The translations under genes and the position numbers were made by a program. From Eledone cirrhosa (lineage: Eukaryota): 64,000 bases of DNA. Shown here in pieces: positions 9,328-49,817 of the stretch (within the stretch, counting starts at the first letter, position 1; every line of letters begins with the position of its first letter). Where the stretch lies: the NCBI GenBank assembly GCA_964016885.1, contig OZ024750.1:6386001-6450000 (forward strand), read 5' to 3'. The notes below the pieces were generated by a model, which saw only the letters and a list, made by a program, of their open reading frames with translations, had not been told where the DNA came from and did no database searches.

Positions 9328-9508
9328 ATATATATATAAACTTATATATACATATATATATATATATATATATATATATATATATATATATATATATATA
9401 TATATATATATATATAGTGGTAGAACACTGGAAGGTAATATCCGTAGTAGTAGAGCACTCAGTCCATGGGACGAGTTAGGTAGAAGTGGTTACACAACAG
9501 TTAGTTCA

Positions 9509-9558
9509 CCATACCGAGAACAATTGTTTCACCTTAGCGGATCCTCAGCTCGTAATGG
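9509..9558 (-). ncRNA. Type I hammerhead ribozyme motif (mirror copy of 9581-9630)
   Basis: Exact reverse complement of 9581-9630. Confidence 0.75.
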
Positions 9559-9580
9559 TCATGGTTCCGTATAACCGTGC

Positions 9581-9630
9581 CCATTACGAGCTGAGGATCC
9601 GCTAAGGTGAAACAATTGTTCTCGGTATGG
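9581..9630 (+). ncRNA. Type I hammerhead ribozyme motif
   Basis: ccattacgag-CUGAGGA-uCCgcuaaGGu-GAAA-CaauuG-UU-cucgguaugg; stem I 8/10 paired, stem III palindromic (ACAAUUGU). Confidence 0.75.
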
Positions 9631-9666
9631 TGAACTAACTGTTGTGTAACCACTTTTATATGTATG

Positions 9667-9868
9667 TATAACGTTGAAAGAGATAGAAGACTAAACAATG
9701 CAAAATGTTCTGAAAGATGAGGTAACGAAAAGTAAAAGTACATTGTTACCTGGTAATCTTTTTTTAAATTGTTGTTGTTCTTTTATCTGTCCAATATTTC
9801 GGAACCTAAAAGTCCCTTTTTACAGTCCATTTTGCATTGTTTAGCCTTCTATCTCTTTCAAAGTTATA
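9667..9868. mobile_element. Fold-back/MITE-like element in TA context
   Basis: 41-bp inverted arms 9667-9707 and 9828-9868 (39/41 identical), both ending in TATA. Confidence 0.65.
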
Positions 9869-9940
9869 TATTATATACAAAGCTTCAAGAAAACTTCAAC
9901 AATTTATTATATATATATATATATATATATATATATATAT

Positions 9941-10153
9941 AAACAAAGAGGGTGTGGTAAGCTACCAAGCGGACCATAACGCACCAGAGTACTCAATACT
10001 TAGGGTAGTAGAGTGGGTAATAGGAAAAGAGTCAGGACCCCGACGGCTGAGCTCCGGCCGTTTCGACAGCTAGATCCGAATGTTGTGCATAGTTCTGATC
10101 TAGCTGTCGAAATGGCCGGAGCTCAGCCGTCGGGGTCCTGACTCTTTTCCTAT
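9941..10153. mobile_element. Family C fold-back element carrying hammerhead 3' halves
   Basis: 61-bp arms 10020-10080 and 10093-10153 (59/61); each reads GAAA-(C/U)GGC..GCCG-UC; tail 9941-10019 abuts (TA)n. Confidence 0.75.
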
Positions 10154-10510
10154 ATTACAAGCAGTATGTAGAGTACCGTTTATTTTGATGCTGATTGTTT
10201 ATGCGATTTGACAAGATCTTAGACTTCAGCCTCAGATCGAACCAAGAAAACAATGTTTCCTTTGGCTTTTCCAATTGCTGACTCTCTCTACCAGTCGCAA
10301 CTCCTGGCAGACGGAGCAACCCGAAATAAAACGTCAATGTCTTCCAAGTTTTATTCATGGCTATATAGGCGAGTTAGCAGAGTTGTTAGAACATTGGATA
10401 GAATGCTTTGGTGGTATTCGTTCCGGCTATTTGCTCTCTGAATTCACTGAGGAGGACGAAAGACAAAATCGACCTGGGCGGGGTTTGAACTGAGAAAGAA
10501 GAGAGCAAGA

Positions 10511-45346: not shown

Positions 45347-45485
45347 GTTAACCTCGGCGGGGGTTTGAACTCAGACCATATGGCCCGTTATGGCCTGAGT
45401 TCAAATCCCACCGAGGTTAACTTTGCCCTTCATCCTTACGTGGTCGATAAAATAAAGTACCTTGTGCCAAAAGTAGAAACAATTA
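45347..45485 (+). mobile_element. SINE family 1 with inverted 5' duplication and 14-bp TSD
   Basis: gttaacctcggcggggtttgaactcag / ctgagttcaaatcccaccgaggttaac; attaattgagaatg at 45333 and 45482. Confidence 0.85.
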
Positions 45486-45516
45486 ATTGAGAATGATGAA
45501 GGTATGATATGGATAT

Positions 45517-45688
45517 AATTGTGTCTACTTTAGGCACAAGGCCAGCAATTACTCAGTACATTACTGGTACTTTATTTTATCGACTCCGTAAGGGTGAAAG
45601 GCAAAATTAACCTCGATGGGATTTGAACTCAGGTAACTATGCTAGAAAACATGGCGTCCGACTCTACCGATACTGCCAATTCGCCGCT
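45517..45688 (-). mobile_element. SINE family 1
   Basis: Consensus match including box A and box B. Confidence 0.88.
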
Positions 45689-46613
45689 TTGCTAAATAAA
45701 GTGTGTGATTCATTGGAAACAAATCTTTTGTTATGTGTGCTGTGATAAGGACGGGAACTGTAACAACGAGGAGGATGAAAACGATTTCCATTTAAATAGA
45801 GTTGAACAGCTATGTTAAAACCCTAATGTAGAACTGCTACAAAACCTCGGCTTACATGTTAAGACCCAATCTAAAAATTTCTGAACAATTGAGGTTGTGC
45901 ACCAGGAAAGGGGTGCGCCCTAGAAAGAACCCCCCCCCCCCAAAAAAAAAACGTGTCCATAATGGCTCCGCACATATCAGAAGGTTTATACTTCCTTTAA
46001 GAATTAAAGAACCTATCTTAGTTCGTCGAAACCACAATAGCAACTCTGACATCCATTTAAATAAAGATAACAACTGAACCGCAACTTGTAAGCAGAGGAA
46101 AAACACATACATTCCTTACCCTAAATTTTACGTTAAATTTAACCTTCAAATTTCCGCAAAGGGTTTAAAGACACGCTTACATTGTTAGTTGCTGCATCGT
46201 TTGATGATGTCCGTAGGGAAATGGATGTGTGTGGTCTAGTTTACACGAAAGAAACAGACAAACAAGTCTAGTTTATGAACGAAGCTAAATATACAAATGT
46301 ATGTTTTACTTAATAAGTTGAAACGAGAAGTCTATAATAAAATACTCTGAAATCACTGAAACAGATTTCAAACACATTGCCTGTATGTGTTTTTTTTTTG
46401 GGGGGGGGGGGGGGAGCTGTGTGTGTGGTGGAAAAATGGGGTAAACAACATTAAAAATAACAAAAACGGAGACAAAGAACAAATGAAAATTGGCATGGAG
46501 AAAATAATCGAACAGGAAAAAGAAAACAAGTAAAATTATATAAATATATATATATATATATATATAAAATACAAGGACGATTTGTTAAGCCTTCATTACG
46601 TTTATTAATTTGT

Positions 46614-46692
46614 GACGCGCGATTCGCTATTGATCAGCTCAAGGCTCGATCTATATCGATCTGGCCCGACTCTGGAATCAAAAGCTCGTCGG
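46614..46692 (-). ncRNA. Degenerate hammerhead motif related to family D
   Basis: Reverse complement CcGACGA-GCuuUUGAU..ccagagucggg..gagcug AUCAAuaGC-GAAu-CgcgcG-UC; stem I poor; between TA runs. Confidence 0.5.
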
Positions 46693-48369
46693 ATCTCTGC
46701 TGTTTTAATGACAGAATGAACATTAAACTACCTGTATATATATATAGAGAGAGAGAGAGTGTAGACTCTACAATGTAGAGTATACTCCTTTATTTATATG
46801 AAGCTAGTACTTTACTTGAAATATTGTAAAATATGCAGAGCAGGTGTCCTCTCTTCTCCGTCAGATTTTGTTACAATATCTAAAACTTTATTTGGATTGT
46901 AGCAGCTTACAAACGACACACAAGGAAAATATAGGAAACAAACATTTACACCAAACTAGCGATTACATCGTCCAGTGTGTCCTTTTATATCCAAGACTGT
47001 ATTGTGTGAAAGCTGGGAGATTTGGTTACTATTTTTAACAGATCATGTGACACGTAGATGCTTCGTCTTTGAGGCATGAGACTGTGTAAACTATAAACGG
47101 GAATGAAGTTTCAAATAAATGTAATTTCGCGGTGGTTCTATTGCATTTGAACCTAAGAAATGTGAGGGTTAGTGATAAAAGTGAGCTCTTAGGCGTAGGA
47201 GATACACAGCTTTGTGTACCTCCTGCGCCTAAGAAACAATGCATCGGTGTCTTAAGAGTGAATATATATTGATATATGAACAAACATGTACTGAATTATG
47301 TTTGAACCGCTGTTGCTTCTATGTTCGGCTCAATCAAATTGCGGTTACATATATATATTCAAACTTGTTAAAACTATATATATATATATATATATATATA
47401 TATATATATATATATAGTTTAATAAGTTAGAAAGATTGATGTGTATTCGATAACATTATTTTTGTATATTGCATTAGACGTAAGGCTTTATCTATCAGTC
47501 TTTGATCTCTCTGTCGCTGACATTTCATGTTTGAAAACAACCATTATCCTAGCCATTCTGATCTCTTGTTTATAAAGAAATTAGGCATCTGGTTCATCAT
47601 TGTCACTTCACAAAATTGACTTATTCAGAATGGCACATTATGGAACATATTTTCGTAAACTTGAAACAAATATAACGGCAACATAGTAAACAGATTTATG
47701 GTCACATACACATATATCTATCTACCTATATATATATATATACACATATATATATATATACATATATATATATATATATATATATGAATTTACAGCATCT
47801 AGACTTCTCACCCCTCATTATAGTAACGCGCTCGACAACATTAAGGTATCAACAGAAATATTTTTGAAATATATAACTCATAGATGCAAATAAGCGAAAG
47901 TGACAGTCCATATTCAGTGGAAGAGAAAAATGGCAGCAGAGAAAATTCCAACACGCCGACAGGCAGGCTAAGTTTAGACATATTTTTAATATAAACCATT
48001 AAGAAAGTGACAGTTTGTATTTAGCAGAACAGAAACAAGTTTTAATAGAGGACAACCAGTGAAGACACCTGAATATAACTATATACTAGAGGAAGGGGTT
48101 GTTGTTGTTGATGATGATGATGATGATGATGATGATGATGATAAGACCAGAAAGAGAAGACAGGATCACACATGAATTTAGCAGAATCAAATTAAAATTT
48201 CAGAATCTACGTATAAACAAAAAAAGAAAGAAATTCGACATATGTGTTGAAATAATTTCCCGTGGAGGCAGTTGATTTAACTATTGTATAAGATATATAG
48301 CATGGCTGAATATATACTCTAGCATATATAATGAATAAATACAGAGACAGGAACACACACACACACACA

Positions 48370-49387
48370 CACATATATATATATATATATATATATATAT
48401 GTATATGTATATATATATATGTATATATATATATATATGTATATGTATATATATATATGTGTATGTATATATATATATGTATATATATATATATATATAT
48501 ATGTATATGTATATATATATATGTATATGTATATATATATATGTATATATATGTATATATATATATATATATGTATATATATATATATGTGTATATGTAT
48601 ATGTATATATATATATATATATATATATATGTATATATATATATATGTGTATATGTATATATATATATATATATATATATATGTATATATATGTATATAT
48701 ATATGTATATATATATGTATATATATATATGTATATATATATGTATATGTATATATATATATATATATATATATATGTATATGTATATATATATATATAT
48801 ATATGTATATGTATATGTATATATATATATATATATGTATATATATATATGTATATATATATATATATATGTGTATATATATATATGTGTATATATATAT
48901 ATGTGTATATATATGTATATATATATATATATATGTGTATATATATATATGTATATATATATATATATATATGTATATATATATATATATATGTGTATAT
49001 ATATATATGTATATATATATATATATATATGTGTATATATATATATGTGTATATATATATATGTGTATATGTATATATATATATATATATATGTATATAT
49101 ATATATATATGTATATATATATATATATGTATATATATATATATATGTATATATATATATATATGTATATATATATATGTATATATATATATGTATATGT
49201 ATATATATATGTATATATATATATATATGTATATATATATATATATGTATATATATATATATATGTATATATATATATATATATGTATATATATATATAT
49301 ATGTATATATATATGTATATATATATATATATGTATATATATATATATATGAATATATATATATATATATATATGTATATATATATA
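48370..49387. repeat. 1-kb (TA)n/(TG) satellite
   Basis: Direct reading. Confidence 0.95.
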
Positions 49388-49622
49388 GTAATACTAAAAA
49401 TTGTGAAGACTAAAATCCGAAGAGGGCTCGATAAGGATTATATATATATAAACCGTAGAGTAAATATTTCTTAAAATAACAGATTAAAGTTTAAGCAAAG
49501 AATCTCTGCTTTCACCCATAACGGGATCTTCTGAAACTAAAAAAAAATTTGTTTAGTTTCAGAAGATCTCGTTATGGGTGAAAGCAGAGATTCTCTGCTT
49601 AAACTTTAATCTGTTGATTTAA
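49388..49622. mobile_element. Family F fold-back element in (TA)n
   Basis: 71-bp arms 49471-49541 and 49552-49622 (67/71), tail 49388-49470. Confidence 0.85.
49555..49605 (+). ncRNA. Variant type I hammerhead motif (CAGAAGA core)
   Basis: aguuu-CAGAAGA-uCUCguuauGGGu-GAAA-GCAGAGauuCUCUGC-UU-aaacu; mirror copy on the minus strand at about 49488-49538. Confidence 0.6.
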
Positions 49623-49817
49623 TATATATATATATATATATAAATACAATATCGGAGAAAGCTTTTTAGCGATACTCCGGCCAAATTCCAACTCACTCAA
49701 CAAACATTAGGAAATAAGTGATTATATTCCCAATTATGTGTTCGGGGTGCTAACTAAAAGTATTGCGTGGAAAATTGGCTGTATTATTTCAAATGAGACA
49801 TATCTAATATATCTCTT

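Follow-up and report, generated by a model that had tools for sequence, protein, structure and literature searches.

A duplicated bulged hairpin beside both ends of Hydra-clade Penelope-like elements in Eledone cirrhosa, with a predicted role in internal priming

Much of the biology of the Hydra clade of Penelope-like elements (PLEs) is already known: the parts of the literature consulted describe the clade itself, its hammerhead ribozyme, its preference for (TA)n, the inverted copy and the tail (Craig 2021, PMC8557442; Cervera 2014; Arkhipova 2013; a retrozyme preprint). For Poseidon_Ac (PAc), another PLE, both target strands are reported to be cut and extended, with the reverse transcriptase (RT) starting internally at two sites that delimit the tail (Frangieh 2024, PMC11167929). 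How PLEs choose such internal start sites, and why the tail is optional, are questions posed by the sections seen of PMC8557442 and PMC11167929. Here we describe a bulged hairpin that bears on them, found in 64,000 nucleotides of Eledone cirrhosa (assembly GCA_964016885.1, contig OZ024750.1, positions 6,386,001 to 6,450,000, forward strand; hereafter the window, numbered from its first letter). We propose, with a probability of about 0.6, that it is an RNA hairpin positioning the Hydra RT for internal priming, which would explain the Penelope "tail"; this function is predicted from sequence.

The hairpin reads RCTC, an upper stem of 2-6 bp, a loop, a 3' bulge of 2 nt, GAGY and RC; it spans about 20-30 nt, with a specified core of 10 bases. 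Five strict instances listed in a first-pass annotation of the window are present exactly as written, strands included: hairpin 1 of family A (9455..9476, minus; a variant with the 1-nt bulge of its family), C (9989..10014, minus), G (23985..24005, plus), D (34081..34099, minus) and E (43059..43080, plus). The D hairpin is an internally deleted variant, with part of the upper stem and most of the tail gone relative to other D copies. Two looser versions had been added. The one in family F (49424..49461, minus; long loop, CC replacing RC) is a genuine family member whose typical copies read GCTC...GAGCCC. The other, H (49694..49720, minus), we dropped, since it sits in a separate repeat (49641-49960), its 5' arm differs in four of the six homologs that cover the arm, and its GAGT is followed by no RC.

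Self-BLAST of the masked window placed fold-backs at A, C, D, E and F, all laid out as (TA)n or similar, inverted arm, direct arm, motif, a further stretch and (TA)n. The A fold-back (9414..9658, minus) joins an inverted, short-ended arm (about 9566-9658, plus) to a direct copy on the minus strand that runs from a hammerhead core at 9548 through the hairpin and a tail to a long end near 9414, followed by (TA)n. That of C (9940..10153, minus) is 5'-truncated within the hammerhead, that of E (42614..43145, plus) has its hammerhead core at 42955 (plus) and an inverted copy ending at 42714 (minus), and those of D and F lie at 34072..34384 and 49386..49629 (both minus), D having no linked protein. 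Family G is present as a single tailed copy (23916..24048, plus) with a mutated hammerhead GAAA, no inverted arm and no linked protein; its clade is inferred from the motif alone. As had been annotated, the shorter arm stops 0-9 nt before the motif, with gaps of 7 nt in A, 5 in C, 0 in D and 3 in E, and of about 9 nt in F as judged from the BLAST arm, an exact-match arm not having been obtained there.

The strict pattern, ACTC-N8-22-GAGTRC (spacer 8-22 nt), occurs five times in the window versus a mean of 1.02 in 50 shuffles. Outside it we sampled the 3.0 Gb genome without regard to content in 59 stretches of 10 kb (590 kb; 39 at arbitrary places, 20 beside the window), where 67 matches compare with 9-16 in five shuffles, and (TA)4 follows within 100 nt downstream of 52 of the 67 versus a background of 19%. 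The compensated form GCTC..GAGCRC is not enriched in number (9 versus 1-10), yet TA follows it in seven of nine cases; after the mismatched and wobble forms it does so in 0 of 5 and 0 of 9. Four control patterns were not enriched in the 590 kb sample (6-29 matches, TA following in 0-5). A motif-blind search of sample and window returned 104 palindromes, 64 of them with exactly one end on a TA run, and in 30 of these 64 oriented palindromes the strict motif lies at -9..+19 from the arm end; palindromes without it comprise mutated copies, F with its long loop, non-PLE palindromes and several motif-negative families. The shortness of the core and the shared ancestry of the families could suggest chance, or passive descent without function. 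The enrichment of the motif and not of the controls, together with the compensatory changes and the occurrence in coral, sea-cucumber and copepod elements described below, has already largely refuted that explanation, which we regard as highly improbable.

In full-length copies the tail continues into a unique leader, so that both element ends lie within the unit. In F, P, E, C and J a second hairpin starts a few bases beyond the long (tail) end (P and J being further families; the P hairpin 2 has a 67-nt interior), and in full-length copies of F, P, E and C it lies a few tens of bases upstream of the ATG. A descriptor for tandem hairpins picked up family E alone, along with several chance pairs, and the remaining second hairpins were located by reading full-length copies. 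Junctions were mapped as 419 alignments to six leaders (A, C, E, F, P, J), from which 148 were dropped as ending in other repeats, decayed, running through or cut. The remaining 271 end in a TA run. In the interval -12..+1, 116 of them fall at hairpin 1 and 146 at hairpin 2, with 9 lying elsewhere; the long ends are inflated by DNA queries that contained tails, and the P and J references were too short for scoring short ends. Selecting copies by protein avoids the tail bias, and the copies so selected use both ends, with 12 short and 7 long among 19 traceable A copies and 5 short and 12 long among 17 of F ("other" rows counted by eye; 13 A and 5 F copies not reached). With shared TA letters counted as element, the modal gaps from end to hairpins 1 and 2 are 4 and 5 nt in A, 5 and 3 in C, 2 and 3 in F, and 0 and 3 in E, with single values of 2 nt for P and 1 nt for J. 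Enrichment and junction spacing therefore agree with the first-pass proposal of a conserved cis-element of PLEs at fixed spacing from element ends; the lack of enrichment or of fixed spacing that it had named as refuting is the opposite of what we find, 262 of 271 TA junctions lying at -12..+1 of a hairpin.

All modal ends terminate in TA or TAT, and a TA/TAT stretch of 2-5 nt lies 1-5 nt upstream of the hairpins. This, and the closeness of hairpin 2 to the ATG, would be expected if the hairpin were a leader element for translation control, ribonucleoprotein assembly or transcription, with the ends set by TA microhomology alone. The better TA matches elsewhere in the leader are nearly unused, however: longer TA runs inside the F hairpin take 2 of 77 F junctions, so TA richness alone is not what sets the ends. 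Moreover, families that have diverged keep the 1-5 nt offset at both hairpins even though their spacers differ in length (about 68 to 100 nt), and we consider this explanation very unlikely. A coding explanation of the hairpin was rejected for A, where the hairpin is upstream of the ATG and spacer lengths are free; in C an open frame runs through the leader.

Base pairing was scored in 20 hairpins, one per family and position; they were chosen by the lower stem, a selection that itself makes lower pairs 2-4 invariant. At lower pair 1, 10 have A-T, 9 have G-C and one is mismatched. Over the first three pairs of the upper stem, a 2-nt 3' bulge gives pairing in 50 of 60 cells, 43 of them Watson-Crick; shuffles average 19.7 Watson-Crick cells and reach 43 in 0 of 10,000, a value that is no true probability, because the hairpins are kin by descent and were picked by their lower stem. 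Bulge registers of 0, 1 and 3 nt were not significant (p = 0.91, 0.06 and 0.96), and the bulge starts with T in 18 of the 20. A MAFFT alignment of 15 hairpins was not structural and was set aside, no pair count or covariance model being derived from it.

The elements that carry the hairpin can be assigned to a clade wherever a protein is linked to it. Full-length or near-full copies were recovered for A (L120), F (L235-237), E (L266-268), C (L280) and P (L252-254), among them full-length relatives of the window copies of A (L120), C (L280), E (related copies L266-L268 and L283) and F (L236, L237). All five families have one open reading frame (ORF; open frames of 713-784 aa) containing RT and, at its C-terminal end, a GIY-YIG endonuclease (EN), domains that were read from motifs; a Pfam search with the family A protein gave no relevant match. 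Identity to the A protein is 39% for C, 35% for E, 38% for F and 52% for P. Thus A, C, E and F, which the first-pass annotation had taken for unrelated families, are divergent relatives at 35-39%. RWR is found in A, C, E and F and RWK in P, and A, C, E and F have DKT instead of DKG; translations of the motif-bearing proteins show the Hydra-type CxCX5C linker and EN CxxC and CxH without CCHH. Hammerhead cores found by pattern in the pseudo-long terminal repeats (pLTRs), which predict ribozymes, and junctions of insertion into (TA)n complete the features by which PMC8557442 defines the clade. By these features, and not by an RT tree, A, C, E, F and P are Hydra-clade PLEs, as are all motif families linked to a protein. 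The Neptune/Nematis features (CX2-5CxxC linker, CCHH inside GIY-YIG) are absent from motif-bearing families and present in two motif-negative ones, N1 and L044a.

Among the loci fetched, no linked Hydra ORF was found for D and G, and K and M were likewise not tied to an ORF; J has a candidate ATG after hairpin 2, no ORF being tied to it. When families were followed from the hammerhead, L282, which is linked to a Hydra EN, has the hairpin after the short end with TA replacing RC, L281b also has it after the short end, and L281a gave no tailed copy among five. Motif-negative L044b had no ORF linked among 25 loci, and further motif-negative families are without clade assignment (L056/L076, L055-1866, L038-2458, L065-1582, L046, L057). 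Two assignments were rejected: family A as Neptune, against the Hydra definition, and family C as linked to a Neptune-type ORF in L064 and L145, where two elements are divided by a TA run. At L064, L145, L172, L035 and L038, PLE copies from different families and clades are stacked in one (TA)n tract, an arrangement that can mimic a connection of the ORF of one family with the tail of another. Scanning the family A protein against metagenome and viral contigs found no relatives.

The hairpin is not confined to Eledone. Among the six Hydra consensus sequences of File S7 of PMC8557442, inspected by eye, a clear hairpin stands near the 3' ends of Hydra-2_Amil and Hydra-2_Ajap; Hydra-1_Ajap starts 2 nt before one hairpin and has a second before its ATG; and in Hydra-1_Crog the 3' end holds a form with one mismatch and the 5' start a compensated GCCC/GGGC form. 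Six 9-mers representing the 3' half gave eight exact matches in the 584,000-character supplement, in which line breaks may hide others: four at Hydra termini, each with a GCTC partner, and four in non-Hydra sequence, apparently internal. By its sequence, then, the hairpin occurs in coral, sea-cucumber and copepod Hydra elements. The word "hairpin" is absent from the main text of Craig 2021, Arkhipova 2013 and the retrozyme preprint, and a literature search whose scope excluded Arkhipova 2006, Pyatkov 2004, Repbase notes and bioRxiv supplements yielded no account of it. The bulged hairpin itself appears to be new, as do the covariation in its stem, the presence of two copies and their register with the two ends. 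Of these, the bulge, the covarying upper stem and the second copy had not been visible to the first-pass annotation.

We read these observations as parts of one proposed pathway, in which the PAc mechanism is inferred to carry over to Hydra by analogy. A read-through transcript would contain the hammerhead, hairpin 1, the spacer, hairpin 2 and the start codon, an order seen in the DNA. The GIY-YIG endonuclease would then nick (TA)n, as PAc does in vitro; insertion into (TA)n is what the copies display. The hairpin would be bound by the protein, and pairing would take place between the nicked TA end and the TA/TAT just upstream, in keeping with the microhomology and spacing at the junctions. 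Starting at hairpin 1 would give the short end and starting at hairpin 2 the long end, as the two clusters of the junction map suggest, so that the "tail" would be hairpin 1 plus spacer. Priming from both target strands, one per site, could yield the asymmetric head-to-head fold-backs, and the hairpin would anchor the polymerase from behind and go uncopied from its own site. Long-ended copies that bear an ORF require a read-through template, for which the head-to-tail arrays of family C are candidates (G000:C1:437198638-437213181 and C1:91474395-91488983; period about 3.5 kb (3531 bp), open 784-aa frames).

The same junction spacing would be seen if the hairpin directed RNA 3'-end formation, by cleavage or termination just upstream, and RT then started at the new RNA end in the manner of long interspersed nuclear elements (LINEs). 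Tandem transcripts need defined ends, and for PAc the ends of RNA-seq reads are reported to coincide with RT start sites (PMC11167929, parts consulted). The same source, on the other hand, describes PAc initiating internally on unprocessed RNA in vitro. The leaders matched no Rfam family either (0 matches at E<=5 in C and E; in the window, the best 150 of 332 matches were all sub-threshold microRNAs), and we think this route rather unlikely.

Several observations weigh against a hairpin that positions RT. Hairpin 2 of family A is degenerate, with its first pair mismatched and an 89-nt interior, yet the long end of A is as sharp as the others. N1, which has no hairpin, has equally sharp two-site ends, at 0 and +60, and two Neptune/Nematis-type families have tailed fold-backs without it; the hairpin is thus not needed by PLEs in general. 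The N1 tail is the start of its ORF, as in Poseidon. (Both N1 ends, at L238:1658-1740, follow AATAT and precede CG, which may be a sequence-type signal replacing the hairpin.) In File S7, as inspected by eye, no hairpin was seen in Hydra-1_Amil, whose consensus is 5'-incomplete and probably ends at the short site, and Hydra-1_Obim is ambiguous. Finally, folding and pair counts point clearly to neither strand: of 12 sense folds, 8 give the lower stem a pair probability of 0.66 or more, and of 12 antisense folds, 7 give it one of 0.6 or more, A1, A2, F1 and F2 fold poorly in sense, and G-T pairs outnumber A-C pairs by only 7 to 4.

That the antisense strand folds too would suit a hairpin acting in DNA, recognised in cDNA or a double-stranded intermediate by the endonuclease, which would cut a few bases from it, the ends then being resolution sites and not start sites. 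Craig 2021 (PMC8557442) ascribes the tail to EN-mediated resolution, the Drosophila virilis EN required the tail for recognition, as cited by Frangieh 2024 (PMC11167929; both papers as far as seen), and a predicted dimer could read the inverted repeat. PAc ends, however, coincide with measured RT start sites in the part of PMC11167929 consulted; an asymmetric bulge, a covarying upper stem and loops ranging from 4 to about 90 nt are more in keeping with a folded single strand than with a duplex site; and, among the five well-formed second hairpins, four (C2, E2, P2 and J2) give poor antisense folds. We judge a DNA-level role unlikely and keep to an RNA hairpin that would place the RT. A stronger form of the proposal, held tentatively and at somewhat less than even odds, is that the Hydra tail results from duplication of a portable hairpin, sufficient for a target-primed start 1-5 nt upstream anywhere in an RNA, and that a protein dimer on two copies builds the asymmetric fold-backs.

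The hairpin would offer a defined element, with compensatory variants and a natural duplication aligned with both ends, making the start-site question testable, and young families with many open full-length frames exist. If the hairpin proved portable, a compact RT-endonuclease would be programmed by it to insert any RNA into (TA)n, and it would reveal how the sister group of telomerase sets the beginning of a template. The hairpin may also serve curators of Hydra consensus sequences as a boundary marker.

The window holds further features. Family F is also present as a copy that lacks the hairpin, stops at the short site and runs into (TA)n (8443..8781, plus), and as a small fold-back whose hairpin is mostly deleted (12816..12944, minus); small remnants of F and A lie at 20702-20744 and 52696-52744. 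An extra hairpin of family M, the covariant GCTC...GAGCAC (6564..6584, minus) within a short tailed copy at about 6519-6611, had been missed by the first-pass annotation. Directly 3' of E, a motif-negative tailed repeat (43160-43268) has a homologous fold-back at L065:1582-1723. The repeat that holds H is (TA)n-ended with a hammerhead-like core and has at least nine other copies in the fetched loci, no ORF being linked. An abundant repeat resembling short interspersed nuclear elements (SINEs) has many copies (10510-10706, 22895-23085, 62410-62760 and others), some of them palindromic (51824-51956). Outside the window, variant hairpins at L084:8029-8105, L065:759 (minus) and L035:7968 (minus) have long interiors, or CA, TT or TA in place of the RC dinucleotide, and the family C hammerhead (L280:1710-1800; L161; L164) combines a stem III of unusual length with a U3-A8 core variant (TTGAGAA or TTGAAAA).

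Comparison with known RNA signals places the hairpin more precisely. The template boundary element of telomerase is an RNA helix 5' of the template that stops synthesis. The Hydra hairpin would likewise be an RNA helix beside a defined template edge, used by a related RT, but its polarity is opposite: in ribozyme sense both ends are 5' of it, and copying would begin a few nt upstream. The template-boundary-like role suggested in the first-pass annotation is therefore not supported for a hairpin 3' of the inferred start sites. Stringent LINEs and SINEs, eel UnaL2 among them, carry 3'-terminal stem-loops that are recognised by the element protein, lie 5' of the priming point and are copied. These too are short hairpins near a target-primed initiation point, bound there by an element protein, as we propose here by analogy, whereas the Hydra hairpin follows the inferred start on its 3' side, lies within the transcript and is present twice. 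In hepadnaviral epsilon the bulge templates protein priming. Epsilon resembles our element as a bulged stem-loop that binds a reverse transcriptase (PMC10534774, seen in part), such binding being proposed here; the Hydra ends, in contrast, lie outside their hairpin, and nicked DNA would serve as the primer.

The closest relatives are the PLEs themselves. The published Hydra elements, in the portions of PMC8557442 covered, share with ours the C-terminal GIY-YIG without CCHH, RW(K/R), DKT, the CxCX5C linker and CxxC plus CxH, as well as the hammerhead, (TA)n insertion, the inverted 5'-truncated copy and the optional tail. They differ in a tail of 30-40 bp, against about 60-100 nt here, in that no hairpin is described for them, and in unit length, some units here exceeding 3 kb (family C period 3531 bp). 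Poseidon_Ac (PMC11167929, in the parts consulted) belongs to another clade: its PAc site is inside the ORF, initiation takes place inside the stem-loop and with no homology to the cut DNA, the source reports no motif that is conserved or duplicated, and no RCTC/GAGY stem was seen by eye in the RNA letters of Fig. S1. What it has in common with the Hydra elements of Eledone is the arrangement itself, with two internal sites 3' of the hammerhead that delimit the tail, a stem-loop (AC-rich in Poseidon_Ac) at the start region and an AT-rich target.

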